DNA of 32,000 nt from Pseudoalteromonas translucida KMM 520 (GTDB lineage Bacteria > Pseudomonadota > Gammaproteobacteria > Enterobacterales > Alteromonadaceae), in contig NZ_CP011034.1 of assembly GCF_001465295.1 (NCBI RefSeq), positions 1,920,001-1,952,000 of the forward strand, read 5' to 3'. Numbering within the stretch: the first letter of the stretch is position 1; each line of letters begins with the position of its first letter. Both the position numbers and the translations under genes were made by a program. Positions 11,888 through 27,179 of this stretch are shown in pieces. The notes under the pieces are model-generated. The model saw only the letters and a program-made list of their open reading frames with translations, was not told the DNA's origin and ran no database searches.

Positions 11888-14191
11888 ATGACCAGAAAGA
11901 TTGAATTATTAGCCCCAGGCGGTGATGTAAACGCGGTAAAAGCCGCCATCGTAGCCGGCGCTAATGCGGTTTATTGTGGTTTAGATACCTTTAATGCCCG
12001 TAACCGAGCGTCTAATCTTTCGTTTGACGAGCTTAACGGCGCACTGCGCTTAGCCCATGAATACGGCTGTGAGATTTTTTTAACCCTTAACGTGGTTATT
12101 TTAGAGCACGAAATGGCAGCGTTGTTTAAGCTGTTAAACCAATTAGTAAATACCACGCTTGATGGTATTATTGTGCAAGATTTAGGGCTGTTTAATATTG
12201 TTAAAAAGCACTTTCCTACATTGCACATTCACGCGTCTACCCAGCTAACTACCCATAACGAATCGCAAGTAGAATTTTTAGCGCGCATTGGCGCTACACG
12301 CGTAAATTTATCGCGTGAGCTTAACTTAACCGAAATTAAAATACTCACCGACGTAGCGCACAAATGCGATGTATTAACCGAAGTGTTTGTACACGGTGCA
12401 TTATGTATTGCGTTTTCGGGGCAATGTTACTCAAGTTCAGTAAGTGTCGGTAACTCGGGCAACCGAGGCCGCTGCTCGCAAGCGTGCCGTGACGAATACG
12501 AGCCAACCGCTATGGGTAACAAACACCCATTAAACTTAAAAGACAACTCGGCCTATTTTGATTTACCAGAGCTGGTAGCCGCAGGTGTTGATTCGTTAAA
12601 AGTAGAAGGCCGTATAAAAGGTGCTAACTACGTACATACGGTTATTGATAGCTGGCGCAAACAAATAGATACCTTTGTACAAACTGGTAACTTAATTGAA
12701 GACGACTCAAGCCTTTACAAAGTGTTTAATCGTAATTTCACTAATAAATTTTTACAAGGTGACATGACCAAAAACATGTTTACCGACAATCCGCGCGACC
12801 ATAGTTTTGATCACGCAAACGAAAAAAGTAACGCCATTTCGGTTGTGCAAATTTACGATGCACAGCAAGAACTCGCCGCTGAAAAAAATGACATTGATAC
12901 GCTGGTTAAAAAGAAGATTGAATTTCTAGATATTTCAAAGCGTGAGCTATGCTTTGAATTTGCAGGGCAATTAAACCAGCCATTTACTGTAAGTATAATT
13001 ATTAAAGATAAAAACGATATTACGCTATCGAATAAAAACGCAGAGCACACTCAGCAAATACAACGCTTTGAAGTGCAATCGCAAATGGTTATGCAAACCG
13101 CCGATAAATCAGTTGTTGATATTGCCGCTATAGATAAACGCTTTAAAAGCTTTAGTAATGCCAATTTTGAAATTAAAAATATGGATTATTCAAACCTAGG
13201 CGACAACTTAAGCATTGCGTTTAAAGAGCTAGCGCGCATTAAAAAGCAAGTAGCGTTTTTATTAAACGAAGGCAAAGACGTACTCGCCCCTGTTGAATTG
13301 CCTAAACTGGTGAACCATCAAAAAGTTGATAAAAACAAAACAACACTCTCTATTTTAATATCGGACATAAAAGACGTTCACCTATGTGATTTAACAAACG
13401 GCGATGTTTACTTTAAATTACCAGAGAGCTTTAGAACCGATAACGATAAATACATTAATGTATTTTTAGCGCACCCGCAGTTAATTCCGTGGTTTCCGGC
13501 GGTATTAATTGGTAAAGACTTTGAAGAAGCAGTACGTTTACTCGAAGTTGTAAAACCTAAGCTTATTATTAGTAACAACACAGGCGTTGCATTTAAAGCG
13601 GTACAAATGGGCATTGACTGGATTGCAGGGCCATTATTAAATACCACTAACTCTTACGCGTTATTAACGCTACAAGAGGATTTAAACGCTAAAGGCGCGT
13701 TTATTTCAAACGAAATAAACAAACCACAAATGCGTAATATAAAACGCCCTAACAACTTTAAAATGATGTACAGCATTTATCACCCAATACTAATGATGAC
13801 CAGCCGCCAATGTTTTTTCCAACAAACTGTAGGCTGTAAAAAACCACGTATTGACGCAAGTTGTATGTTGAGCTGTAAAAAAGAAACAACCGTTACTAAT
13901 GTTAAAGGCATTAGCTTTGCCATCGATAAGCAAAAAGGCGGCTACCCAAGCATTTATAACCATGAGCAATTTTTAAACATGGATATTGTAAGTGACTTTG
14001 CCGACAAGTTTGACGAGTTTATGATTGATTTAACCGACATTGGCTCAGGCGATAAAGAAAAACTAGATAAAGCCGTGTTACTTGCGCATTTTCAAGATTT
14101 AATTAGCGGGCAAACACACGCTGCAGATCAGTTAAATAATATGGTAAAAGTAAAAACACGCCAACAATATCTTGAAGGCCTAAACAGTTAA
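11888..14191 (+). CDS. long (767 aa) U32-family protein with a CX6CX15CX3C Fe-S type cysteine motif
   Basis: The N-terminus ELLAPGGDVNAVKAAIVAGANAVYCG and the U32 signature EVFVHGALCIAFSGQCYSS are present. Cysteines C173, C180, C196 and C200 have the spacing CX6CX15CX3C. A large additional C-terminal region has further Cys clusters (SRQCFFQQTVGCKK..ASCMLSCKK). Confidence 0.85.
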   Translation: MTRKIELLAPGGDVNAVKAAIVAGANAVYCGLDTFNARNRASNLSFDELNGALRLAHEYGCEIFLTLNVVILEHEMAALFKLLNQLVNTTLDGIIVQDLGLFNIVKKHFPTLHIHASTQLTTHNESQVEFLARIGATRVNLSRELNLTEIKILTDVAHKCDVLTEVFVHGALCIAFSGQCYSSSVSVGNSGNRGRCSQACRDEYEPTAMGNKHPLNLKDNSAYFDLPELVAAGVDSLKVEGRIKGANYVHTVIDSWRKQIDTFVQTGNLIEDDSSLYKVFNRNFTNKFLQGDMTKNMFTDNPRDHSFDHANEKSNAISVVQIYDAQQELAAEKNDIDTLVKKKIEFLDISKRELCFEFAGQLNQPFTVSIIIKDKNDITLSNKNAEHTQQIQRFEVQSQMVMQTADKSVVDIAAIDKRFKSFSNANFEIKNMDYSNLGDNLSIAFKELARIKKQVAFLLNEGKDVLAPVELPKLVNHQKVDKNKTTLSILISDIKDVHLCDLTNGDVYFKLPESFRTDNDKYINVFLAHPQLIPWFPAVLIGKDFEEAVRLLEVVKPKLIISNNTGVAFKAVQMGIDWIAGPLLNTTNSYALLTLQEDLNAKGAFISNEINKPQMRNIKRPNNFKMMYSIYHPILMMTSRQCFFQQTVGCKKPRIDASCMLSCKKETTVTNVKGISFAIDKQKGGYPSIYNHEQFLNMDIVSDFADKFDEFMIDLTDIGSGDKEKLDKAVLLAHFQDLISGQTHAADQLNNMVKVKTRQQYLEGLNS

Positions 14192-14204
14192 GGTAAGTAA
14201 TAAC

Positions 14205-14864
14205 ATGACACTGCCATTATTATATTCATTACAACACTGCCCATACGCAATGCGCGCAAGAATGGGTATTTTAATGGCAGAGCAACAGGTGGTGCTGCGC
14301 GCTATAAAAACTAAAAACAAACCACCGCATCTTTTACAAATATCGCCAAAAGGCACAGTACCTGTTTTATTACTGCCTAATAACCACGTAATAGATGAAA
14401 GCCTAGACATTATGCTGTGGGCTTTAAAACAAAACGATCCGCATAACTTACTGCACGCACACGATCCGTTAGCACTTGCGCGCATGCTTAAATTAATTAA
14501 CCTAAACGACACGCAATTTAAACCTGTGCTCGAAAAATATAAATTTTATGCTCGCACAAAAGACATGGCACAAATTTATTACCAACAAGCCTGCGAAGAA
14601 TTTATTAAACAATTTGAAGCAAAGCTAACCGCACATAAATACCTAATAGGCGATGAAAAAAGCCTAGCCGATTATGCCCTGCTGCCATTTATTAGACAGT
14701 TTGCCCGCGTAGATAAACACTGGTACTTACAAAGCGAATACTCACATGTACGCGCGTGGTTAAACGAATTGTTGCACGCCCCCATGTTTACCAAAGTCAT
14801 GACAAAATATGATTTATGGATGGATTGTAATGAAGAGTTTTTATACGGGGTTAAAAAAATCTAA
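14205..14864 (+). CDS. glutathione S-transferase / glutaredoxin-2-like thioredoxin-fold protein
   Basis: It starts 13 nt after the U32 stop, so it is probably in the same operon. The N-terminal thioredoxin-like motif is LYSLQHCPYAMRAR..ISPKGTVPVL..IDESLDI. The C-terminal domain is helical. Confidence 0.65.
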   Translation: MTLPLLYSLQHCPYAMRARMGILMAEQQVVLRAIKTKNKPPHLLQISPKGTVPVLLLPNNHVIDESLDIMLWALKQNDPHNLLHAHDPLALARMLKLINLNDTQFKPVLEKYKFYARTKDMAQIYYQQACEEFIKQFEAKLTAHKYLIGDEKSLADYALLPFIRQFARVDKHWYLQSEYSHVRAWLNELLHAPMFTKVMTKYDLWMDCNEEFLYGVKKI

Positions 14865-15000
14865 CTTTAGCTTATGCTTATAGGCAATGACGTTGCAGTA
14901 ACAACCTTTAAAACTCAGCATTGAATAATTCTCAACTTACTATTTTAGCCCTTTATTTACGCTATACTGCCCTTTCCATTACCAACAAACGCTATGCATT

Positions 15001-16263
15001 ATGAACTACTCAAACTTTGGCACTAAATTTACACAACCCAACGGCATTACTCAGTTAATGGAAGACTTAGGCAGTGCTAAAAGCAGTAACAATCCTAATA
15101 TTGTTATGCTGGGTGGCGGTAACCCTGCATTAGTACCACAAGTAAATGAGGTTTTTTTAAGTGAGTTACAAAAGCTCGTTGCCAGTAATAAAGTATCGCA
15201 AGTATTTGGTCTTTACGACGGCCCAACCGGTAACGACGAGTTTAGAGCTGCATTGGCAGGCCAACTAAGTAAAGAATATGCATGGGATATAAGCGCCAAC
15301 AACGTAGCACTTGGCAATGGCAGCCAAGCTAACTTTTTTGTGTTGTTTAATATGTTTGCAGGCGAAATGCCTGATGGCAGCCATAAAAAGATTTTATTTC
15401 CCCTCGCGCCAGAATACGTAGGTTATGCCGACCAAGGTTTATCGGCTAATATGTTTGTTGCCATAAAGCCCGATATAGAAATTTTAAATACCGGTAGCAC
15501 ATCAAAACAATTTAAATACGTTATTGATTTTAAAGCGGTTGAAAAAGTATTAGCAAACGACAGTAGTATTAGCGCATTGTGCGTATCGCGCCCTACCAAT
15601 CCAACCGGTAATGTAATAACCGACCAAGAAGTAAAGCATCTTGATTTACTTGCTAAGCAATACAACATTCCGCTCATTATTGATAACGCATATGGCGATC
15701 CGTTCCCGGGCTGTATTTACACCGATGCAAACCTAACGTGGAACTCAAACATAATTTTATGTATGTCGCTTTCAAAGCTTGGCTTACCGGGTTTACGCAG
15801 CGGTATTGTGGTTGCAAACAATAAAATTATTAAAGCAATTGGCCGCGTAAATGGCAGCATGGTGTTATCGCCAAATAGTATAGGGCCAAGCTTAGTTACC
15901 CGTTTAATTAACGACGACGAACTACTGCCGCTGTGTCGTAATGTTGTGTTGCCTTTTTATCGTAATAAAGCACAAATAGCGATTGAACTGTTTGATGAAA
16001 TATTTGCCGATATGAGTGTTTACTTGCATAAAGTTGAAGGCGCATTTTTTATGTGGCTGTGGTTTAAAGATGCAAAAATAACAAGCGAAACGCTATACCA
16101 AAAGCTTAAAGAGCAAGATGTGTATGTAATTCCTGGACACAACTTTTTTATTGGCATTGACGATAGCTGGGCGCACAAGCACGAGTGTATTCGTATTAAC
16201 TATGCAACCGATGAAGCAACACTACGCAAAGGTTTACAAACCATAAAGTATTTAATGGCGTAA
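15001..16263 (+). CDS. avtA: valine-pyruvate aminotransferase (transaminase C)
   Basis: It is collinear with my recollection of E. coli AvtA along the whole length: FG.KFT..GIT.LMEDL, LGGGNPA, LFPLAPEYVGYAD, VSRPTNPTGNVITD, IDNAYG.PFPG, CMSLSKLGLPG.R.GI, FMWLWFKD, PGHNFF. Confidence 0.93.
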   Translation: MNYSNFGTKFTQPNGITQLMEDLGSAKSSNNPNIVMLGGGNPALVPQVNEVFLSELQKLVASNKVSQVFGLYDGPTGNDEFRAALAGQLSKEYAWDISANNVALGNGSQANFFVLFNMFAGEMPDGSHKKILFPLAPEYVGYADQGLSANMFVAIKPDIEILNTGSTSKQFKYVIDFKAVEKVLANDSSISALCVSRPTNPTGNVITDQEVKHLDLLAKQYNIPLIIDNAYGDPFPGCIYTDANLTWNSNIILCMSLSKLGLPGLRSGIVVANNKIIKAIGRVNGSMVLSPNSIGPSLVTRLINDDELLPLCRNVVLPFYRNKAQIAIELFDEIFADMSVYLHKVEGAFFMWLWFKDAKITSETLYQKLKEQDVYVIPGHNFFIGIDDSWAHKHECIRINYATDEATLRKGLQTIKYLMA

Positions 16264-16566
16264 ATTAATGCTTATGCTATTTACGCCTTGGCTATAACGT
16301 AACATTCACTATAACGGCACGCTATTGAGCAAGTGTTGCCTTTATCGCTTATTTACCTCTGTAATACTGTACTATTTCTGTGCAAACGCGCGCTATACTC
16401 TTTAAATTTATATATAAACTGTTATTCTACGCGACCTTTTTTACACGCTATTTACTAGCGGGTAATATAAAAGGCTGTTCAGGCTGCAAACGCTTACACT
16501 AAGTGGCAGTAATAAAACGCGCGCCCATACAGGTGCACACTTTAAACACCAACATACAGGTAAATT

Positions 16567-17766
16567 ATGCGATTAGGACCAGGACTACTAGTCACCGCAG
16601 CCTTTATAGGACCAGGTACCATAACGACTGCTAGCGTAGCAGGTGCAAACTTTGGCTTTGCACTTATCTGGACATTACTTTTTTCAGTAATAGCCACTAT
16701 ATTATTACAATCTATGGCTGCTCGCCTTGGCGTAGCAACAGGCAAAGATCTTGCTCAAGCACTGCGCGCGCATATTCATACCCCAGTGCTTAAAGTGCTC
16801 GCTAGCTTTTTGGTAATAAGCGCCATTGGCGTGGGCAGCGCCGCCTATGAAGCGGGTAACCTTAGTGGCGCTAGCATGGGTTTAATAAAGATATTTCCGA
16901 CAATAAATGCGCAAATATGGACGCCGCTCATTGCTTTTATTAGCGCATTGTTACTGTACAGCGGAAAACATAAAGTGGTAGAAAACGCGCTCATTTTATT
17001 AGTAATTTTAATGAGCTTAGTGTTTATTTCTACTTTAATTATGGCTGCTCCGCCTATAAGCCAAGTACTAGCGGGTTTTATTCCTACTATCCCTGAGGGC
17101 TCTGTTACCACTGTACTAGCACTAATTGGCACCACCATAGTACCTTATAATTTATTTTTGCATTCAGGAGTGCTCGCAGCAAAATACAACAATAATAGCG
17201 ATAAACGTAAAATTATTAAGCAAACAAATATCGATACCAGCTTATCAATCACTTTAGGTGGAGTGATCACTTTGGCTATTTTATCTACCGCCTCGGTGGC
17301 TTTTTATGGTACCGACGCAGGTAAAGTTAGCGCAGCCAATATGGCAGTACAGCTTGAGCCATTATTAGGGGGCGCTGCCCATTACTTTTTTGCTATTGGT
17401 TTATTTGCTGCAGGTTTAACTAGCGCAATTACTGCACCTTTAGCGGGAGCCTATGCGGTTTGCGGCATGCTTGGTTGGTCTAACAAAATGCAAAGTAGCC
17501 GTTTCAAATCGGTAGCATTGGTTATCTTATTGTTTGGCGCAGCTGTTGCATCACTGGGGTTAGATCCGGTTGCCGTGATCATTTTTGCCCAAGCCGCTAA
17601 TGGCTTATTACTGCCTATTATTACTGTTTACTTACTCTGGTTGGTAAATCAAAAAGCGGTGATGGGCAATTACACCAATTCAGTGTTATTAAATCTTATC
17701 ACTGTACCTATATTACTGCTTATTTTTGGCTTAAGCAGCTACAAGCTGATTAGTTTGATTTTTTAA
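16567..17766 (+). CDS. NRAMP-family divalent metal cation transporter (short MntH-like form)
   Basis: A 399-aa polytopic protein. The N-terminal LGPGLLVTAAFIGPGTITTASVAGANFGFALIW and the mid-protein TIVPYNLFLHS are typical of NRAMP. An in-frame TAA lies 6 nt upstream of the ATG and fixes the start. Confidence 0.8.
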   Translation: MRLGPGLLVTAAFIGPGTITTASVAGANFGFALIWTLLFSVIATILLQSMAARLGVATGKDLAQALRAHIHTPVLKVLASFLVISAIGVGSAAYEAGNLSGASMGLIKIFPTINAQIWTPLIAFISALLLYSGKHKVVENALILLVILMSLVFISTLIMAAPPISQVLAGFIPTIPEGSVTTVLALIGTTIVPYNLFLHSGVLAAKYNNNSDKRKIIKQTNIDTSLSITLGGVITLAILSTASVAFYGTDAGKVSAANMAVQLEPLLGGAAHYFFAIGLFAAGLTSAITAPLAGAYAVCGMLGWSNKMQSSRFKSVALVILLFGAAVASLGLDPVAVIIFAQAANGLLLPIITVYLLWLVNQKAVMGNYTNSVLLNLITVPILLLIFGLSSYKLISLIF

Positions 17767-17781
17767 TTAAACTAAAAACAT

Positions 17782-18146
17782 CTAGGGTCTGTTTATCTTT
17801 CAAGGTTAGATTTGCAGCAGTGTGTTTGGTATTTAGGCAAGGCAGAGCCTATGTGGTGTGGTTATTCCCCATAAAGAGGCGATAACGTAGCATCAATGCC
17901 AAACATGCGCTGCCCGAAGGGTTCTGCCTAGGGGCAATTGACTCTTTGTTGCCTACATGGATGTAGGTAAGGGGCGTGAGCAGGACGCGGAAGCTTTGCT
18001 CGGTTTTTACTTATTCTTACATGGATGTAAGCCAGTAGAATAACGCAGGAGCAGTTATCGAGCCCACTAGGTTACAAACCTCGCGCCGTGATTAAATCGC
18101 CCCTAGTTTGAACAAATTTTAATCCGCAAAGGTCAACAGACCCTAG
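17782..18146. mobile_element. 365-bp non-coding MITE-like element with 12-bp perfect terminal inverted repeats
   Basis: ctagggtctgtt (17782-17793) pairs with aacagaccctag (18135-18146). There is no ORF. Two near-identical internal palindromes are present, cctacatggatgtagg and cttacatggatgtaag. The element sits between the NRAMP stop codon and the terminator hairpin at 18152. Confidence 0.55.
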
Positions 18147-18151
18147 TTTAA

Positions 18152-18182
18152 AAGCCACTGTTCACTACAAACAGTGGCTTTT
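18152..18182. terminator. bidirectional rho-independent terminator
   Basis: An 11-bp perfect stem aagccactgtt (18152-18162) / aacagtggctt (18170-18180) has a 7-nt loop, with A-run and T-run flanks. It lies between convergent genes. Confidence 0.75.
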
Positions 18183-18232
18183 ACCTTATTCATAATAATA
18201 AAAACCTTACCTGTATACTGCAGTAATTAAAA

Positions 18233-18673
18233 TCAGATAATATTTGTTTTTGTTAAGCGTGAAAACACATAGCCCCCTGCTGCACCTGCAAGTAATTGAG
18301 TATAAAACCCCCAGCCTCTTGCGCCCGCTATAATATGAATATTCATAATCGACTCAATAGCAATTAACACCATAGCAAACGCCACAATGCCAGCGATAAC
18401 AAATAGCTGAGTACGGTATTTTTGAACCTTTTTATTAAGCTGCACCGTAACTAAAAAAGCGATGGCAAGTGCAATGGCGATAATAGCGCCATAGGTAGGT
18501 AATAAGCCCAACCAATCATCCAGTGTTAAACTAACACGGTCGCTAAAGCCCACTACAACACCTACATTAACTAATTGATTGACAACGTATTGGCTATGAA
18601 ACAAGCTAGCAAGTGTGAATGTAAATAACCAAGAAACTAAAAATGAGGGCAATATACGTGTTAAAAATGACAT
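18233..18673 (-). CDS. small integral membrane protein, function unknown (4 TM helices)
   Basis: A 146-aa hydrophobic ORF with four clear hydrophobic stretches. No motif was recognised. Confidence 0.55.
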   Translation of the reverse strand: MSFLTRILPSFLVSWLFTFTLASLFHSQYVVNQLVNVGVVVGFSDRVSLTLDDWLGLLPTYGAIIAIALAIAFLVTVQLNKKVQKYRTQLFVIAGIVAFAMVLIAIESIMNIHIIAGARGWGFYTQLLAGAAGGYVFSRLTKTNII

Positions 18674-19848
18674 GGTTATCTCAACTTAAAATAAAGTTTT
18701 TTTCTTATATAAGCCATGCTAGCAAAGGCTTACCCCGTAAACAATGCATCTCTTTTTTTACCCTGCTTTCGCTTTTTGCGTTTTCTGTTAATGCAGGCGC
18801 TGCGTTACCAAAAAAGCAATACAGTACAAAAACCCTTGCCACACAATTACAGTCTCCGTGGAGTATGGTTGAACTAGCAAACGGCACATGGTTAATTACA
18901 GAGCGCGATGGCCACGTAGTTATAATTAAAAATAATGCGCAATCAAGAGTAAAACTAAACCTAGAGGGCTTATACCTTGCAGGCCAAGGTGGCTTGCTAG
19001 ATATAGTGTTATCGCCAGATTATAGCAACTCCAAAGAAATTATTTTTACCTACGCCCAAGGCGATGCCAACGCAAATAGGCTTGTTGTTGCCAAAGCCAC
19101 CTTTAATGGCACTGACTTTTCAAAGCCGCAAATTATTTATAAAGTAGCTACCAATAAAAACACACCACAGCATTACGCTGGGCGCGCCCTTGTACTACCC
19201 AATAATACCTTATTATTTTCTACTGGCGATGGCTTTGACTTTAGAGAGCAAGCACAAGTTATTACCAGCCAGCTTGGTAAAATATTACGAATAAACTTAA
19301 ACGGCAGTATTCCAACAGATAACCCATTTATTAACCATAAAAACCCAAATGCCCACGCTGTTTACTCACTTGGCCACCGTAACCCTCAAGGCCTTGTATA
19401 TGATTACGATACACAGCAAATTATTAGCCACGAACACGGCCCCGCAGGCGGCGACGAACTAAACTACTTAAGCCCAGGCACCAATTATGGCTGGCCAGTA
19501 ATCACCTACGGTAGGGATTATTCGCAAGCGCGTATTTCACCTTTTACTCAATACCCAGGCATGCAAAAACCAAGTGTTAATTGGACGCCATCAATCGCCC
19601 CATCAGGCATGGCGTATTACGGCTCTAAGCACGCCGCTTTTCCCTCATTACAAAAACATCTGTTAATTACTACTTTGGTTGATAAAAAGCTCTACGCTGT
19701 AAATTTAGCTAATGGTGAATTTACCCAGTCTCATATATTCCCAGAGGCCACAGGCCGATTAAGAGATGTGTTTGTAACCACTAAAGGTAATGTAGCAATA
19801 TTAACCGATGGGAAAGATGCAAAGCTGATGTTGGTTAAATCAAATTAG
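18667..19848 (+). CDS. yliI: PQQ-dependent soluble aldose/sugar dehydrogenase (YliI/sorbosone dehydrogenase family), secreted
   Basis: Beta-propeller family motifs are present: GGLLDIVLSPDY, GDGFD, LGKILRINLNGSIPTDNPF, YSLGHRNPQGL, HGPAGGDELN, NYGWP. A signal peptide (FFTLLSLFAFSVNAGAA) is present. The start is uncertain between 18643 and 18667, and I chose the second Met. Confidence 0.8.
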   Translation: MTWLSQLKIKFFSYISHASKGLPRKQCISFFTLLSLFAFSVNAGAALPKKQYSTKTLATQLQSPWSMVELANGTWLITERDGHVVIIKNNAQSRVKLNLEGLYLAGQGGLLDIVLSPDYSNSKEIIFTYAQGDANANRLVVAKATFNGTDFSKPQIIYKVATNKNTPQHYAGRALVLPNNTLLFSTGDGFDFREQAQVITSQLGKILRINLNGSIPTDNPFINHKNPNAHAVYSLGHRNPQGLVYDYDTQQIISHEHGPAGGDELNYLSPGTNYGWPVITYGRDYSQARISPFTQYPGMQKPSVNWTPSIAPSGMAYYGSKHAAFPSLQKHLLITTLVDKKLYAVNLANGEFTQSHIFPEATGRLRDVFVTTKGNVAILTDGKDAKLMLVKSN

Positions 19849-19930
19849 TTCGCAAGAGGGTTAGAGAGACTTCGCTTTTAGAGGGTGATAGCGCCTTTTA
19901 GTAAGCCGCTTTAATAGGTTTAAGCACTCT

Positions 19931-20042
19931 GTTGGGTGGCGCCTTCGGCTTAACCAACCTACCTTTTGACGTAAGTCGGATAAGCGGCGAAGCCACGCCA
20001 TCCGACAAAAGTGATGAGTTTACTAAAAACAACCCGACTTAC
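19931..20042. repeat. two REP-like GC-rich extragenic palindromes, the second nested inside a 9-bp inverted repeat
   Basis: The first is gttgggt-ggcgccttcggc-ttaaccaac (19931-19958). The second is gtcggat-aagcggcgaagccacgcc-atccgac (19975-20006). The outer inverted repeat is gtaagtcgg (19971-19979) / ccgacttac (20034-20042). The form resembles enterobacterial REP (GCCGGATG..CATCCGGC). Confidence 0.5.
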
Positions 20043-20096
20043 CGCGTTATGCAGTAACCGAAAAATGTATTAAAGGTAATTACAGGAGCTTTACAC

Positions 20097-20531
20097 CTAG
20101 TTTTTACCCGATTCTAATTTCTGCTTTAATAATTCAATAAGTTGAATGTTAAGCCCGGTAATTTCAGCTTCTAGCACCTTCACTTTTGCCTGCGACTCTT
20201 CATCATCTTTACTGCGTAACAATGCAGTTTCTTGCAGTAGTTTTTCAAGCTTTTCTTGTATTTCAGCAATCAGTTCATCAAGGGGATCACCTTCAGATTA
20301 TGATGCTTGATCTACATCTTCATTACCTAATAACTTGCGAAATGCCGCTTGATTTTTATCTTCCAGACTTTTTTCCGCCCCCTCTTCAGATATATCTACT
20401 TGAACACCTTGAGCCACTCCCTTTTGCACTGTCTGTTTTTCAGAAACGTCATCAGCCACCACCTTTAAAATTTGTTTTTTCGGGTGAGCTTCTAAAGATT
20501 TAGACGTTATGTTAACTGACATTTTATCCAT
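20097..20531 (-). pseudogene. FlxA-like coiled-coil protein gene interrupted by one in-frame TAA (77 + 66 codons)
   Basis: The listed 77-aa ORF ends at a TAA (comp. 20300-20298). The same frame stays open for 66 more codons (SEGDPLDELIAEIQEKLEKLLQETALLRSKDDEESQAKVKVLEAEITGLNIQLIELLKQKLESGKN) to a TAG at comp. 20099-20097. The heptad-like pattern with an acidic centre resembles FlxA-family proteins; the family call is tentative. Confidence 0.4.
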
Positions 20532-20624
20532 TGTAACACCCCTTATTTAATCAATTATTGGTGGCTATTGCTCAACTATAAATATAATGTTTTGCCAGCT
20601 GTTATTTGTTCTTGTATATAAAAT

Positions 20625-20879
20625 TTGTGCCTGTCCTATTTTACTTCTAAATTTTTAAGGCAAACATTTGTGCGTTATTCATTTTGGGAAAAAACATATT
20701 ATCGGCAGCAAGAAGCCAAAGGAAAACCCCATAATACCATCACCAGATCATTAGCATCTAAGTGGATACGAATACTATTTAGGTGCTGGAAAACATATAC
20801 GCCCTACGATGAATCAACTTACTTAACTGCATTGAAAAGTAAGAGATCACCGCTGTTAAAATTTACGGTGGGAAGTTAG
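20625..20879 (+). mobile_element. 3' remnant of an IS110-family (IS1111-like) transposase gene; the N-terminal catalytic domain is missing
   Basis: The translation ..KFLRQTFVRYSFWEKTYYRQQEAKGKPHNTITRSLASKWIRILFRCWKTYTPYDESTYLTALKSKRSPLLKF matches the conserved IS110-family C-terminus (..YY..QR.KGKSH..A.RALAFKWIRI.FRCW....PYDE..YL.AL...GSPLL). Only about 75 of the roughly 340-400 expected codons are present. The frame is closed by a TAA at 20619-20621. Confidence 0.75.
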
Positions 20880-20883
20880 CTTT

Positions 20884-20924
20884 AGTGCTTGCTGTCCACC
20901 TCAGGGCGTGTTGTTAGACTTACA
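20884..20924 (-). other. truncated integron attC site of cassette 2 (R'' core plus L''-side arm only)
   Basis: The minus strand reads TGTAAGTCTAAC-AACACGCCCTGAGGTGGACAGCAAGCAC. GTCTAAC fits RYYYAAC and starts 5 nt after the ORF stop. The 12 nt TGTAAGTCTAAC are the exact reverse complement of the first 12 nt of the cassette (comp. 22330-22319). The partner arm is absent and the IS110 remnant abuts here. Confidence 0.7.
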
Positions 20925-22256
20925 TTACTCATCACCTGAGTCATCATCTTTATTTTTATCTTTATAAGCCTTGAAAATCTTGAGTAACTTCTCATTATCC
21001 GTAAGGGGATCTCGATAAGTATTTAGGATTTTTTGAAGTTTCTCATTACCCGCAAATGGGTCTTGATAAGAATTTAGGATTTTTTGTAGCTTTTCATTAC
21101 CCGCAAATGAGTCTTGATAAGAGTTAAGGATTCTTTGTAGCTTTTCATTACCCGCAAATGAGTCTTGATAAGAGTTAAGGATTCTTTGAAGTTTCTCATT
21201 ACCCGCAAATGAGTCTTGATAAGAGTTAAGGATTCTCTGAAGTTTCTCATTACCCGCAAATGAGTCTTGATAAGAGTTAAGGACTTTTTGTAATGGCTCA
21301 TTACCAATTGGCTGAAGATGCTGAACCTCAGCATCTTCGATAGAGCTTTCACTTACATCAATAGATAAATTTGATTTACCATCTTCTAGAAACATTGATG
21401 TACTGTACATATGAAAGTTTTTGATATTTGACTCTCGATATATTTCAGATTGTAGCTCAGCAAGGGGACCAATAGTTTTTTTACCATTTAAATTTATTTT
21501 GTACCACCAGTCTTCTTTCGCGTCGTCAGTAATGAAAATTACATTCTCAATATTATCATTCTGTGACTTCTTAATTAATTGTTTCCAAAGAATAAGATCT
21601 CCATATTGTCTCTCATAATTTAAGCCATCATTATAAAAGTGTGTTTCATCATCACCATTACCTTTTCCTGCATCCTTAAAACCCGGAGGGATTTTATTTT
21701 TAAATCGATCTTTTCCTTCAATGTAAAGTTCGTCTAACCACTTTTGGTCTTCTGGTTTTTCACCGACTTTCTCATGGAAAAAATCATTGAGTTTATCTCT
21801 TATTTCATCATGCGATCTTACACATGGTTGTTCATTATCCCAGTGCTGAACAGACTTCTTGTAATTTGAAATACTCTTGTTAATTTCTTTTTCAAGTTTC
21901 TCTGTATTTTCAAACAATTTAGGGAAACGGCGTTTAAGTGCTAGTTTTTCGAAATCCCCTTTAAAAACTTTTTGAATTTTACCTAAATTACTTTCAATAT
22001 CATTAAAAACTACTTTTTCATTTTTAATTATGCTTAATCTACGTCTTTGATACTCCAAGCCTACATGGTACGGGAGCCATAACTTATCGTTAACAGCATC
22101 AAGGATACTAAAGAAGTCATCCCTAGTTTGTTTAGCATATCCATATAAATTAAGTAGAACGTTGGTATCAAAAACAAAAATAGTTTTTTCATCCTTCCAT
22201 AACTCTTCCAATACAGCACTATCAATATTGTAAAACCCTTTAAATATATCTTTCAT
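20925..22256 (-). CDS. PIN-like domain nuclease (DUF4935/PIN-like type) with a C-terminal 7 x 17-aa tandem-repeat tail
   Basis: N-terminal PIN acidic residues lie in characteristic contexts: FVFDTNVLLNLY (D30), YHVGLEYQRR (E68), YGDLILW (D220), FITDDAKEDWW (D244/D245). Residues about 319-436 are repeats of NEKLQ(R/K)ILNSYQDSFAG, followed by an acidic end DDDSGDE. Confidence 0.75.
   Translation of the reverse strand: MKDIFKGFYNIDSAVLEELWKDEKTIFVFDTNVLLNLYGYAKQTRDDFFSILDAVNDKLWLPYHVGLEYQRRRLSIIKNEKVVFNDIESNLGKIQKVFKGDFEKLALKRRFPKLFENTEKLEKEINKSISNYKKSVQHWDNEQPCVRSHDEIRDKLNDFFHEKVGEKPEDQKWLDELYIEGKDRFKNKIPPGFKDAGKGNGDDETHFYNDGLNYERQYGDLILWKQLIKKSQNDNIENVIFITDDAKEDWWYKINLNGKKTIGPLAELQSEIYRESNIKNFHMYSTSMFLEDGKSNLSIDVSESSIEDAEVQHLQPIGNEPLQKVLNSYQDSFAGNEKLQRILNSYQDSFAGNEKLQRILNSYQDSFAGNEKLQRILNSYQDSFAGNEKLQKILNSYQDPFAGNEKLQKILNTYRDPLTDNEKLLKIFKAYKDKNKDDDSGDE
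20938..21310 (-). repeat. 51-bp in-frame tandem repeat array (about 7 units) inside the PIN-like gene
   Basis: Units start at 20989, 21040, 21091, 21142, 21193 and 21244 with an exact 51-bp period. Degenerate units lie at both ends. Adjacent central units (21091-21243) differ by about 2 bases each in my by-eye alignment. Confidence 0.9.
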
Positions 22257-22318
22257 TCATTGTCCTAAATTAGTTCTGCTTTTAAATAAATATGCTGAGG
22301 GATGTTGTTAATTGTGTC

Positions 22319-22424
22319 TGTAAGTCTAACGTCTGTGTTCAGCGGCATTTGAGGCGACACCTGTTTTTGTGGCAGCAAAATTGGGTGGTCCCTCAAATGT
22401 CCGCTGCAACGACTTGTTATAAGC
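22319..22424 (-). other. complete integron attC recombination site (about 101 bp core, R''-L''...L'-R')
   Basis: The minus strand reads GCTTATAAC-AAGTCGTT-GCAGCGGACATTTGAGGG-(35 nt)-CCTCAAATGCCGCTGAAC-ACAGAC-GTTAGAC. The L''/L' arms pair except for one unpaired A in L'', an extrahelical base. R' GTTAGAC fits GTTRRRY. R'' starts 4 nt after the upstream ORF stop. Confidence 0.8.
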
Positions 22425-23691
22425 AACCTTACCGCGGCAAGTGGAATGCTTGGATAGCAATATGAACTTCTCGATTTGAATCATCATTAATGTGAAACCG
22501 ATACTGATACCAACCTTCTTCCACCTCTTTGACAAATCCCAAATGATTCGGATGTTCTGAAGTAACTTCACGAATAGTTTCGAGGACGGGGCTGAACTCC
22601 TTGTTGGATATGAACATAACCACTGCTGCCTTTGAATCCCTCCAAGTGAGATACGAAAGCAACTGAGTTATTGTTTCGAGATAGCCTTTCTTCCCATGCC
22701 AATATTTCAATTCGGCCACGAACACATTTGAGCCCTCGTGACGAAGCAAAATATCTGTTTTACCTTTCTTATTAAATGTTTCGCCCGTTGCAGAACCCTC
22801 AAAATTTGGCTCTAAAATCAGAAGCATATGATCACGAAGATGTTCCTCACCTTTTCCAGCGTATGTACTCGGCAACCGCTCAAATTGCTTGCCAACATCG
22901 TGGATAATTTTGAGAATCTGATGGTAAATTGCGTTATCAAGAGTTGGTTCCGGCTTATAGCCTTTGGCAGTAACTTCGGGCTTGGGCTTGCTTGGTATGG
23001 CTGGGGTTCGTTTAGCTGGAACTGAGAACGTAGAAGGTGTGCTGTGAGCTTTTCGAACAGGAATACCCAAAGCCGAAATCACGTCATGTTTCTTTAACAA
23101 CTGTTCTTTTCGTGCATCGAATGCTTTGCTCAACAGTGACTCCAACGACCCGTTGAATCTTACTAGATCGTTCGTAAGATTCTGGTTTTGCGACGTTAAC
23201 TGCGCCACAACATTATCAGCCTCGCGCTTTATCGCTTCCGCTTCTTGGTTAAAGTTAATAATTTCAAACTGAATTTCCCGACCATCAGTCTGAATACGCG
23301 GAGATGACATGCTGTATGTACTTGCACGAACCTTGAGCAACTGAGCATCCCCAGAAAACGGCAGGTGGAAGGTGTACACATCTTTTGGATAGGATTTTCC
23401 ATTGTCCACCCAGTATGAACTGGGATGTCGTTTGGCAGGAATCATCCGTTCTTCAACAGAAACCGATAGTTGCTCTTGATGAATTTCCAATGGCTGCATT
23501 GAAAACTCCGAACCCAAATGATCAAGGTATTCCGTCTTGTTTACATTCAGAATGTAATCGTCAGTCTGGCCCTTTATAGCTTGAAGGGCTTGTTCCTTCC
23601 TGCCTTCGATTACGCCAAATCCATCTAACTCATAAAAGGCTACAAAATAATTATGCCCGTATCGACTCATCTCAGCTCCAGTAGCTTATAA
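22330..23691 (-). mobile_element. integron gene cassette 1 (413-aa nuclease-like protein), complete, 1362 bp
   Basis: It starts TTATAAGC (from G|TTATAAGC, comp. 23692-23684) and its own attC carries the exact complement GCTTATAAC (comp. 22424-22416). It holds a single ORF with an SD-like GGAG 6 nt before the ATG. It ends at the G of R' GTTAGAC. Confidence 0.75.
22429..23670 (-). CDS. hypothetical two-domain protein with a C-terminal PD-(D/E)xK-like nuclease motif
   Basis: The 413-aa ORF has an N-terminal domain of about 200 aa ending in a coiled-coil-like stretch (aa 140-195). A Pro/Lys/Ser-rich linker spans aa 205-243. The C-terminal domain has the ordered motif GEEHLRD (E275/E276) .. GKTDILL (D306) .. 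FVAELKYW (E320-x-K322) .. ITQLLSY (Q336). This is the E...D...ExK...Q order of restriction-endonuclease-fold enzymes. Confidence 0.6.
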   Translation of the reverse strand: MSRYGHNYFVAFYELDGFGVIEGRKEQALQAIKGQTDDYILNVNKTEYLDHLGSEFSMQPLEIHQEQLSVSVEERMIPAKRHPSSYWVDNGKSYPKDVYTFHLPFSGDAQLLKVRASTYSMSSPRIQTDGREIQFEIINFNQEAEAIKREADNVVAQLTSQNQNLTNDLVRFNGSLESLLSKAFDARKEQLLKKHDVISALGIPVRKAHSTPSTFSVPAKRTPAIPSKPKPEVTAKGYKPEPTLDNAIYHQILKIIHDVGKQFERLPSTYAGKGEEHLRDHMLLILEPNFEGSATGETFNKKGKTDILLRHEGSNVFVAELKYWHGKKGYLETITQLLSYLTWRDSKAAVVMFISNKEFSPVLETIREVTSEHPNHLGFVKEVEEGWYQYRFHINDDSNREVHIAIQAFHLPR

Positions 23692-23692
23692 C
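23684..23692 (-). other. cassette-boundary core site GTTATAAGC (R'-type) at the upstream end of cassette 1
   Basis: It is a perfect reverse complement of the R'' core at 22416-22424. It lies 13 nt upstream of the ATG. Immediately upstream is only a 6-bp-stem hairpin (AACGAG..CTCGTT), not a full attC. Confidence 0.55.
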
Positions 23693-23735
23693 GAGCCTGT
23701 AGATTAACTCGTTTTTTGTTTTTATTCATAAACAA

Positions 23736-23764
23736 ACCATAGCTGAGTTCCTATTTTGGTTCAA
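23736..23764 (-). promoter_or_regulatory. candidate sigma70 promoter reading into cassette 1
   Basis: The minus strand reads TTGAAC (comp. 23764-23759), a 17-nt spacer, then TATGGT (comp. 23741-23736). Each hexamer matches consensus at 4 of 6 positions. It lies about 65 nt upstream of the ATG. This is sequence-only and weak. Confidence 0.25.
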
Positions 23765-24071
23765 TCGATTACTTATTTATGCAGAATATAAAGTGGGAGT
23801 TTGATGTTGTTTTAATTGGTATTCTGGAAGGAATTACTGGTGTTTAAGCGGCTTTATTGAGGTTAAAAGAGCTTCCCCCTCTTAATGCATCGTGTTTTGC
23901 AGCTTTTCTATATTATGAACAAGGCAATACAGTTGCCATTACGCATTCACTTGACCCCGTAACAGATAAAAAGTCGTAACAAGGACAGGCGCATATTTTT
24001 TGGCAAAGAACTGTAACGCGCTAAAGCACGCCCTACATATTAGCTGAACCTTTTTACTTTTAACCTATAAT

Positions 24072-24108
24072 AAAAAAGCCGCTGTTTATTACAAACAGCG
24101 GCTTTCTT
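24072..24108. terminator. rho-independent terminator downstream of serS (bidirectional shape)
   Basis: A 10-bp stem agccgctgtt (24077-24086) / aacagcggct (24094-24103) is flanked by an A-run on one side and a T-rich run on the other. It lies about 45 nt after the serS stop. Confidence 0.8.
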
Positions 24109-24149
24109 TTTAAGCTCATAAGCCTAAAACCAGACTTAAAACTTAAGTT

Positions 24150-25835
<1,686 letters not shown>

Positions 25836-25843
<8 letters not shown>

Positions 25844-27179
25844 TTTCGTATCGTTTAAGTGGGCTTTGCGCGTCGCGCTCTTTTAAGTAATCGAGCTTTT
25901 GCTTAATTTTTTGCTCAAGGCCACGATCGCTCGGTAAATAATATTCCTTACCTTGCATTTCTGGTGGTAAATACTTCTCTCCGGCAGCAAAAGCGCCTTC
26001 TTCGTTATGCGCATAACGATACTCAGCGCCATACCCTAAGTCTTTCATTAAGTTGGTTGGCGCATTACGTAAATGCTCTGGCACTGGGTAACTTGGCTCG
26101 TTTTGAGCATCGGCCTTGGCTTGATTAAACGCCATATACACCGCATTACTTTTAGGTGCGCTGGCTAAATAAAGTGTGGCTTGGGCAATTGCGCGTTCGC
26201 CCTCGCTTGGGCCAACTCGCTGAAAAATATCCCATGCGTTTAGCGCCACTTCCATAGCGCGCGGATCGGCGTTGCCTATGTCTTCTGTGGCAATGGCAAG
26301 TAAGCGCCTAGCTACATATAAAGGGTCGCCACCACCGGCTAAAATACGGCAATACCAATACAGCGCGCCATCGGGGGAGCTGCCTCGTACCGATTTATGA
26401 AAGGCCGATATTAAGTCGTAAAATTCATCGCCGCCTTTATCGTATTTAGCTAAATGTGTGGGCAGCACTTGGCTAAGTACGTGCTCGTCTACATTGTATT
26501 GGCCGTTTTGCTCTGTGGTTAAATCAACCGCTTGCTCTAGTAAGTTAAGTACTTTGCGCGCGTCGCCACCACTTGCTTGGCACAGTGCTTTTTTTGCGTT
26601 GTCGGCAATTACTATGTGCTTTTGGCTTAATTGTTCGTCTTGTTTGAGTGCGCGATTTATTACTGTGTATAGATCGGTATCGGCAAGCGATTTTAAAACA
26701 TACACACGGGCACGCGACAAAATAGCGTTGTTAAGTGCAAACGAGGGATTTTCGGTGGTTGCACCTACAAATATAAAGGTGCCGTCTTCTATGTGCGGTA
26801 AAAATGCATCTTGCTGGGATTTATTAAAACGGTGAACTTCGTCAACAAACATTAAGGTACGTTGGCCACGGCTTTGTAGGTTTTCGCGCGCCTGCGTAAC
26901 GCTGTCGCGAATGTCTTTAACGCCTGCAGTAACTGCCGACATTTGAATAAGCGCAGCATCGGCATGATTAGCAATTATTTGCGCGAGCGTTGTTTTACCC
27001 ACGCCCGGCGGGCCCCACAGTATTAAACTATGACAGCGCCCTGCAACAATTGCCTGATGCAGTGGTTTATCGGCGCTGAGTAAGTGCTGCTGACCAATAT
27101 ATTCATCAAGGGTTGTTGGGCGCATACGCGCTGCGAGTGGGCGTACATCGGGCCCAAAGTTAAATCCTAAGTTACTCAC
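25836..27179 (-). CDS. rarA: replication-associated recombination protein A (AAA+ ATPase, MgsA/YcaJ)
   Basis: 447 aa. [18 protein letters not shown], Walker [12 protein letters not shown], Walker B and sensor [24 protein letters not shown], and ATTENPSF are nearly identical in pattern to E. coli RarA. Confidence 0.95.

Follow-up and report, generated by a model that had tools for sequence, protein, structure and literature searches.

Results

A gene for a 413-residue protein in an integron-type cassette beside serS

The window analyzed here, meaning the whole 32,000-nt stretch of Pseudoalteromonas translucida KMM 520 DNA (NZ_CP011034.1 positions 1,920,001-1,952,000, forward strand), harbors next to serS a gene for a 413-amino-acid (413-aa) protein that lies in a 1362-bp cassette of the integron type. 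Its open reading frame (ORF), placed at 22429-23670 by an earlier reading of the letters alone (hereafter the sequence-only reading), has the same coordinates on the minus strand in the ORF list; it opens with ATG, with a GGAG positioned 8 nt upstream of the start. The gene is real, under selection and conserved: a sequence search returned 3514 homologues at E<=1e-3, the best 120 being nearly all 404-420 aa long, and in a library of 50%-identity representatives 3732 clusters match the protein, 1309 of those below 1e-30; a length of about 400-415 aa is shared by almost all matches. The nearest relative is the hypothetical protein RB215_08305 of Pseudoalteromonas sp. HL-AS2, with 411/413 residues identical; an exact-sequence lookup of the window protein found no identical record (P0001 differs at two residues). 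The features that define the locus are:

22429-23670, minus strand: gene for the 413-aa protein, a member of PADLOC family PDC-S54 (ORF list and PADLOC profile match)
22324-22422, minus strand (top strand): attC site of 99 nt, an imperfect hairpin with the box layout R''-L''...L'-R'
23684-23692, minus strand: upstream cassette boundary GTTATAAGC, with the crossover between G23692 and T23691

The attC site follows directly on the stop codon, where the minus strand, read from 22424 down to 22324, opens with GCTTATAAC-AAGTC-GTTGCAGC. Its boxes comprise R'' TTATAAC (22422-22416), a 5-nt spacer AAGTC, L'' GTTGCAGC and, on the far side of the hairpin, L' GCTGAAC, a 6-nt spacer ACAGAC and R' GTTAGAC (22330-22324); we take the 5-nt and 6-nt spacers and the extra base in L'' to be the same as those of attCaadA7. 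As DNA, the hairpin folds at -23 to -24 kcal/mol, with z = -3.3. With the attC-side crossover between G22330 and T22329, the cassette extends on the minus strand from the T after G23692 (23691) down to the G22330 of GTTAGAC, giving 1362 bp, within which all other ORFs are short and either antisense or overlapping, a qualification to the claim that this is the sole ORF of the cassette. The upstream boundary GTTATAAGC is complementary to GCTTATAAC, which forms the R'' end of this cassette (22424-22416); likewise, TTATAAGC, at the 5' end of the cassette, is complementary to the cassette's R'' GCTTATAA. More generally, the units at this locus start with TTAxxxx and end with the complementary xxxxTAAC, as exemplified by the pairs TTATAAGC/GCTTATAAC, TTATAACTC/GAGTTATAAC, TTATACGTTT/AAACGTATAAC and TTAGACTTAC/GTAAGTCTAAC; this is as expected if the 5' end of a cassette and its R'' box once formed one attC.

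A covariance model built from 12 attC sites adjoining homologues elsewhere, with the window left out, shows compensatory changes in 9/13 consensus pairs. Its top match in the window is the site at 22322-22424 on the minus (gene-sense) strand, but the match is weak (16.6 bits, E 0.07). The second-best match, at 977-1043 on the minus strand (15.3 bits, E 0.15), is an intergenic hairpin far from the cassettes that is probably a terminator and shows the weak discrimination of so small an attC model. For heuristic scans a relaxed rule was used, the strict version (>=6/7 complementarity between R'' and R') missing the window's own site.

Homologous cassettes in other genomes

The boundary GTTATAAGC upstream and GCTTATAAC downstream of the gene are kept in Halomonas, in the cyanobacterium Pegethrix and in metagenome-assembled genomes (MAGs) of Desulfobacterales and Ectothiorhodospiraceae; in loci L010, L012 and L013 the pair covaries as GTTACAAGT/ACTTGTAAC, a covariation in homologous cassettes of other phyla that is also given as TTACAAGT/ACTTGTAA. 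At least 16/81 homologue loci (about 20%) have an attC site whose start lies no more than about 10-30 nt from the stop codon, the background being about one heuristic attC site per 16 kb. Run on 80 related loci, the covariance model gave 37 matches, all 37 on the gene-sense strand; these include sites abutting the gene on which the model had not been trained (L026, L027, L030) as well as further sites in multi-cassette arrays (L010, L012, L022, L029, L034 from Vibrio nereis, and L078). In L059 the heuristic scan found ten equal-length sites of 138 nt; an eleventh, located by a local scan, immediately precedes the gene.

Arrays of equal-length attC sites flank the homologues in a Bacteroidota MAG (L059, 6741-17334, 138 nt), in Vibrio nereis (L034, ~126 nt) and in an Ignavibacteriales MAG (L040, 138 nt). 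Long arrays of equal-length sites identify these three as sedentary chromosomal integrons, which are, to our knowledge, little documented outside Proteobacteria.

Collectively, the attC site after the stop codon, relatives in attC arrays and the exchange of cargo at G|TTA described below support the complete 1362-bp cassette as first delimited.

The protein belongs to the PDC-S54 family

The PDC-S54 profile of PADLOC-DB v2 matches the 413-aa protein at E 3.3e-152 (505.7 bits), with residues 10-412 aligned to positions 6-407/410; no other PADLOC family matches at E<=1. By this profile, the protein is a member of PDC-S54, a family already catalogued as a defense candidate and never tested. The PDCs are 145 'phage defence candidates' that were nominated by 'guilt-by-embedding' in BREX, DISARM or type I restriction-modification (RM) loci, and all 145 are labeled untested by their authors (Payne et al. 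2024 preprint, PADLOC-DB v2). In line with the family, the window protein matches the profile over its full length and is organized as a single gene, and some of its relatives sit inside or beside RM loci; the window copy differs in lying outside any known defense system, in an integron-type cassette by serS. Searches of Pfam, NCBIfam and PHROG with the 413-aa protein yielded nothing meaningful, and PDB sequence and profile searches gave coiled-coil noise on its long helix and nothing relevant. The assertion that no named family could be recognized for the N-terminal half stands, although the family as a whole has a name; the Pfam and PADLOC searches proposed as a check assigned the protein to no non-nuclease family.

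A predicted restriction-endonuclease-like domain at the C-terminus

An AlphaFold model built on an alignment of 122 sequences, spanning 32-85% identity, has a mean predicted local distance difference test score (pLDDT) of 87.4, with the C-terminal domain mostly above 90; it replaced an earlier model on a shallow alignment (pLDDT 71) that had given an uninformative fold search. The protein divides into the following segments:

23242-23625, minus strand: N-terminal alpha/beta domain (aa 16-143), built from three helices and a sheet of 4-5 strands and bearing the conserved motif H-L-P-F-x-G (P104, G107); AlphaFold, pLDDT mostly above 95
23071-23241, minus strand: single long helix of 57 residues (aa 144-200); DSSP, high pLDDT
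22936-23070, minus strand: disordered Pro/Lys/Thr/Ser linker (aa 201-245); pLDDT below 50 at residues 209-226 and 235-240
22432-22935, minus strand: predicted C-terminal PD-(D/E)xK (restriction-endonuclease-like) domain (aa 246-413); AlphaFold topology and conserved motif

In the model, the C-terminal domain runs through helix 275-289, strands 293-300, 303-311 and 314-323, helix 327-340 and strand 347-354, which is the alpha-beta-beta-beta-alpha-beta order of a restriction-endonuclease core. The catalytic residues named by the sequence-only reading (E275/E276, D306, E320, K322 and Q336) are all found at the positions it gave, in the contexts GKGEEHLR, GKTDILL, VAELKYW (E320 and K322) and TQLLSY, respectively. 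Helix 1 would carry E275, strand 2 D306, strand 3 E320-x-K322 and helix 2 Q336-x3-Y340. E275, D306, E320 and Q336 are invariant in the 122 aligned sequences, with conservation of 90% or more at K322 and Y340. We argue for a catalytic C-terminal domain because the acidic/lysine set is invariant across so diverse an alignment.

Foldseek matches of appreciable probability are nearly all PD-(D/E)xK or Mrr-type nucleases, albeit with E-values of 0.01-0.1 and target TM-scores of 0.2-0.47. Against PDB, they comprise SfsA (E 0.034, probability 0.77), NucS/EndoMS (probability 0.60-0.66), EcoT38I, Cdn1, CdiA-CT and BpuSI; in the viral library BFVD, an Mrr type IV restriction domain (E 0.0096, probability 0.99) stands beside PD-(D/E)xK nucleases at 0.97 and 0.84. 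Among 115 relatives searched with Pfam, 7 weakly match DUF234 and one weakly matches HSDR_N, both of which we take to be members of the PD-(D/E)xK clan, and relative P0204 shows a weak DUF6602 match in the homologous region. The predicted nuclease core around D306/E320/K322 thus bears out the proposed PD-(D/E)xK-like domain in topology and in a motif that is invariant or nearly so, with weak Foldseek E-values, and at the level of prediction we regard the fold as well supported.

These fold matches bear on three other readings of the domain. The first is that it mimics a nuclease fold or acts on RNA, the protein being an RNase or a non-catalytic binding protein: the tRNase-type toxin CdiA-CT (4g6v) is among the matches and none of the matches is statistically strong, but the complete catalytic set is invariant in the alignment and most of the matches are DNases, so that we consider this very improbable. 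The second is a horizontally acquired nuclease of DNA repair or recombination, similar to NucS/EndoMS or RecB, with no role in conflict. In addition to the NucS/EndoMS matches, which are among the closest in PDB, a QxxxY motif follows the ExK motif, an arrangement resembling that of RecB-family nucleases. However, the distribution of the family is patchy (330 genomes in a one-genome-per-species collection of 185,579 species), its genes reside on cassettes and plasmids, its N-terminal domain evolves fast and no repair genes are conserved beside it; we find a repair role still harder to credit than an RNase or a mere binding protein.

The third reading has the protein as a type IV-like restriction endonuclease, dependent on DNA modification or structure, in which the N-terminal domain binds DNA and the Mrr-like domain cuts it, with no protein trigger and no abortive infection. 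Mrr, as the best match in the viral library, fits this reading, as do the DNA-recognizing enzymes EcoT38I, BpuSI and NucS among the PDB matches, the single gene with no methyltransferase partner and the homologues located by RM genes. The predicted core carries E...D...ExK...Q in the same structural positions as the Mrr/type IV catalytic domain, NucS/EndoMS and SfsA, the best fold matches. In contrast, the N-terminal half bears no relation to the domains with which those enzymes bind DNA and is unlike known readers of modified bases; Mrr_cat matches neither the 413-aa protein nor any of the 115 relatives, limiting the resemblance to Mrr to the level of the fold; and the fusion of the same domain to a STAND nucleoside triphosphatase (NTPase), described in the next section, better fits an activated effector. 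We judge type IV-like restriction unlikely.

The N-terminal half and the linker

The N-terminal domain has no match in Pfam, NCBIfam or PHROG and no credible match in Foldseek. In distant relatives, mean identity is 27% for this domain, 37% for the linker and 52% for the C-terminal domain, and by these sequence comparisons the N-terminal half evolves about twice as fast as the C-terminal domain. We propose, by analogy, that the N-terminal domain serves as a sensor or recognition domain. The coiled-coil-like segment that had been noticed in the sequence corresponds in the model to the 57-residue helix 144-200, where sequence matches are to coiled-coil proteins only (e.g. dynein light chain, E 0.003); judged from the model, this helix is probably a coiled-coil or oligomerization element.

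The linker, described earlier as Pro/Lys/Ser-rich over aa 205-243, has that composition and is rich in Thr as well (8 Pro, 6 Lys, 5 Thr and 4 Ser), and it is disordered in the model, with conserved short motifs at P204, T214-F215, R221-T222, P231 and PEPTLD. In the fusion protein P0256, the C-terminal module is joined, from the PEPTLD motif onward and at 59% identity, to an nSTAND2 NTPase. The same module on such an NTPase is the arrangement of the antiviral STAND NTPases (Avs / NLR-like) that have nuclease effectors, and it supports a logic of sensor plus nuclease effector. The window protein differs from the STAND systems in having no NTPase domain, its putative sensor being a small alpha/beta domain with a coiled-coil helix.

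Distribution and genomic context of the family

The relatives found in the one-genome-per-species collection span Proteobacteria, Cyanobacteria, Nitrospirota, Bacteroidota, Firmicutes, Acidobacteriota, Planctomycetota, bacteria of the candidate phyla radiation and a Nitrososphaeria archaeon. The Pseudoalteromonas protein is up to 81-85% identical to proteins of Halomonas and of the cyanobacterium Leptolyngbya, an identity across phyla that implies recent horizontal transfer. Relatives occur on 22/72,556 plasmids, all annotated as hypothetical and two of the plasmids being haloarchaeal, and in 2/50,697 phage records. On a Thauera plasmid, the homologue is enclosed by genes for a type I S subunit, RelE/HigA and a restriction endonuclease.

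Clustering of neighbors in 81 loci revealed no shared family except the gene itself and antisense ORFs inside it, which makes it a single-gene module; nor did any small gene adjoin it in a conserved manner as a type II toxin-antitoxin partner would. The 148 nearest neighbors include PADLOC matches to type I, III and IIG RM, SIR2-HerA, MADS and PDC-S15 proteins. A defense role is suggested by association only, namely the PADLOC listing, the fusion to a STAND NTPase and the plasmid and RM contexts, and the protein may be regarded, as the sequence-only reading had it, as a candidate single-gene defense module with a full-length PDC-S54 match.

The serS slot in sister strains

Among Pseudoalteromonas strains that share an identical SerS protein, the gap from serS to GSDH is variable. 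Sister strains of this kind (L081, L083-L086) follow the window colinearly from serS to ...CTACAGSCTCG (...AACGAGTTAATCTACAGSCTCG), depart from it at the next TTA (G|TTA) and rejoin it at ...TAA|CAACACGSCCTGAGGTGGAC. Between the two junctions, the sister strains hold the 413-aa gene alone (HL-AS2 and others) or unrelated genes of 98, 100 or 246 aa; the window holds the 413-aa gene and a second unit that encodes a PIN_8 protein. The features surrounding the cassette are:

23693-24149, minus strand: conserved backbone from serS to the insertion point (conserved in L081, L083-L086)
20925-22256, minus strand: gene of the second cassette, a 443-aa PIN_8 (PIN-like nuclease) protein (Pfam PF18476 1.7e-67; phrog_9788 4e-82)
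20788-20919, minus strand: shared right flank, R'' GTCTAAC, then AACAC and GCCCTGAGG..., conserved in all sister strains from ..TAA|CAACACGSCCTGAGGTGGAC

The backbone, which is the recipient side (attI-like or a degenerate attC), contains the serS terminator hairpin (24075-24105), an A-rich microsatellite (AATAAAAA)n and a small hairpin AACGAG..CTCGTT that ends at the crossover. The copy number of the microsatellite, which is just upstream of the junction, differs between strains. In L082 and L087 there is a different insertion with an earlier start, carrying a T5orf172/MUG113 protein and a reverse transcriptase (RVT_1 + GIIM).

The PIN_8 cassette spans T22329 to about 20913, is bounded by TTAGACTTAC/GTAAGTCTAAC and is absent from HL-AS2. 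Its protein ends in six tandem 17-aa repeats (NEKLQRILNSYQDSFAG) encoded by 51-nt units, the repeats lying at 20908-21315; it matches no PADLOC family and, as a second predicted nuclease, may be another defense candidate. The element that follows in the right flank is an atypical branched palindrome of about 130 nt (-18 kcal/mol, with ACGCCCT/AGGGCGT pairing) which the attC covariance model does not recognize despite a good R'' box; it may be a degenerate attC.

Compared with HL-AS2 and several metagenome contigs that hold the 413-aa gene alone (L083/L091-L096), the window shows, at 22329-22416 and 20913-20919, a precise insertion or deletion that comprises the attC interior together with the PIN_8 unit. 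The two ends of this difference lie in R'' boxes (TAA|C), whereas canonical integron recombination predicts R' boxes; either top-strand attC recombination or a deletion between short repeats could account for it. The simplest account of the difference would be a plus-strand attC belonging to an inverted PIN_8 cassette. We rejected that as the principal interpretation of the site, the asymmetry of spacers and bulge favoring the minus strand and the orientation-specific covariance model placing its match on the minus strand in this window and on the gene-sense strand in all 37 matches elsewhere.

The predicted nuclease in the neighboring cassette brings up a further explanation, in which the 413-aa protein is a selfish nuclease that stabilizes its cassette as a toxin or attacks plasmids and rival elements, with no specific anti-phage role. 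Besides the PIN_8 neighbor, the presence of the family on cassettes, plasmids and regions rich in insertion sequences next to toxin-antitoxin systems is compatible with such inter-element competition, and sedentary integron arrays commonly hold addiction modules. On the other hand, no antitoxin-like partner is conserved in the 81 loci, and a stable single gene across phyla is presumably not constitutively toxic. On balance, we think a purely selfish role quite improbable, though not to the degree of the RNase and repair readings.

Two other observations concern the right side of the slot. A short ORF in the conserved right flank (20625-20879, plus strand) weakly resembles (E 3.4e-4) the last 37 residues of IS110-family transposases and may be an old IS110-type remnant; some IS110/IS1111 elements target attC sites. 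A conserved 144-aa gene by the slot (20100-20531, minus strand) has an in-frame TAA at codon 78, where the sister strains encode Gln, and is on that account probably a pseudogene in the window strain.

Discussion

Integron cassettes are established carriers of anti-phage systems, several of them nuclease fusions (Darracq et al.; three 2025 references in Science and Nature Microbiology), a precedent that the sequence-only reading had also named. Epona, Divona and Damona of the Vibrio cholerae chromosomal integron (Darracq et al.) are, like the window protein, encoded in single-gene cassettes and join a PD-(D/E)xK/Mrr-like or DUF6602 nuclease to an unrelated second domain. The likeness is one of layout rather than of demonstrated sequence kinship, and the systems differ in: 1) their partner domains, which are holin, DUF4365/crr6 and others and not the N-terminal domain found here; 2) the size of the window cassette, which exceeds that of their 'streamlined' ones; and 3) their status as tested systems, the window's being a candidate. 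The 413-aa protein resembles the V. cholerae nuclease-fusion cassettes and the STAND-nuclease systems, and belongs to neither.

With the gene, the anatomy of its cassette and its PDC-S54 membership in hand, and with a nuclease fold and motif that the structure model predicts, we lean, with only modest conviction, towards a PDC-S54 protein that is carried by an integron-type cassette and acts by a sensor-effector nuclease mechanism. We surmise that the variable N-terminal domain and the long helix would hold the protein as an inactive oligomer, and that the N-terminal half would recognize a cue of infection, either a protein of the phage or DNA that is foreign or modified. The conserved PD-(D/E)xK domain (E275, D306, E320, K322, Q336/Y340) would then cleave nucleic acid, most probably DNA, and this cleavage would stop phage replication, whether in a direct manner or through the death of the infected cell. 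The cassette format would account for the spread of the family across phyla. In this scheme, catalytic activity, N-terminal sensing, oligomerization and anti-phage function are all things that we infer.

A number of results weigh against this explanation. With regard to the protein, no known sensor shows detectable similarity to the N-terminal domain, no Foldseek match in PDB or BFVD reaches E<=0.001, and none of the Pfam nuclease families reaches threshold in the 413-aa protein or its 115 relatives. With regard to the family, a literature search that included the supplements of the defining preprint found no mention of 'PDC-S54', no experiment on it and no published domain description or mechanism, and in a separate study only half (4/8) of other PDC/HEC candidates protected E. 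coli. With regard to the surroundings, defense proteins are present among control genes 6-10 kb away as well as among the nearest neighbors of the relatives, so that no neighborhood enrichment is claimed; the window copy itself is flanked by housekeeping genes (serS-crcB-rarA-lolA-ftsK on one side, GSDH/Nramp on the other) and another cassette, with no known defense system. In addition, the window has no intI, recognizable attI or Pc promoter, a promoter scan gave no more sites than chance, and expression of the gene is unproven given that neither an integrase nor a Pc promoter accompanies it.

The same findings define the kind of integron setting we are dealing with. The window ORF list has no integrase-like ORF (the Pfam scan covered the ORFs at 11888-27179), scans for Rfam families and tRNAs returned nothing from the window, and a repeat search of the window revealed no family of repeated attC sites, so the locus is not a long array. 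From the missing intI, attI and Pc promoter we conclude that it is an integrase-less cassette cluster, similar to a cluster of attC sites lacking an integron integrase (CALIN), and not a complete integron; the cassette of the sequence-only reading thus holds, and a complete integron around it does not. As in a CALIN or a non-classical genomic cassette insertion, there are two cassettes with attC and G|TT boundaries and none of the three integron elements nearby. Unlike a CALIN, sister strains with identical SerS swap cargo at exactly the same two junctions, and the difference between the window and HL-AS2 ends in R'' rather than R' boxes.

A bolder extension of the sensor-effector reading is that PDC-S54 is a widespread self-contained immunity family, with sequence clusters numbering in the thousands across almost every bacterial phylum and in some archaea, that its N-terminal domain is an undescribed fold for sensing infection, that cassette travel has spread it across phyla, and that the serS slot is integrase-less yet exchanging, with some R'' crossovers pointing to top-strand attC recombination in nature. 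We offer this tentatively, as a possibility that we rather doubt.

What is new here is the structural assignment, the cassette-borne spread of PDC-S54 and the exchange slot adjacent to serS. This slot provides natural 'before and after' strains for studying cassette exchange without a linked integrase, comprising the gene alone, the gene with the PIN cassette and unrelated cargo. If the protein is protective, a PADLOC candidate would become a defined single-protein defense system of broad distribution, one with catalytic-dead controls at the ready (D306A, E320A/K322A) and a sensor domain to dissect, and its cassette would be a large (1.36 kb), cross-phylum example of how integron cassettes deliver immunity genes.

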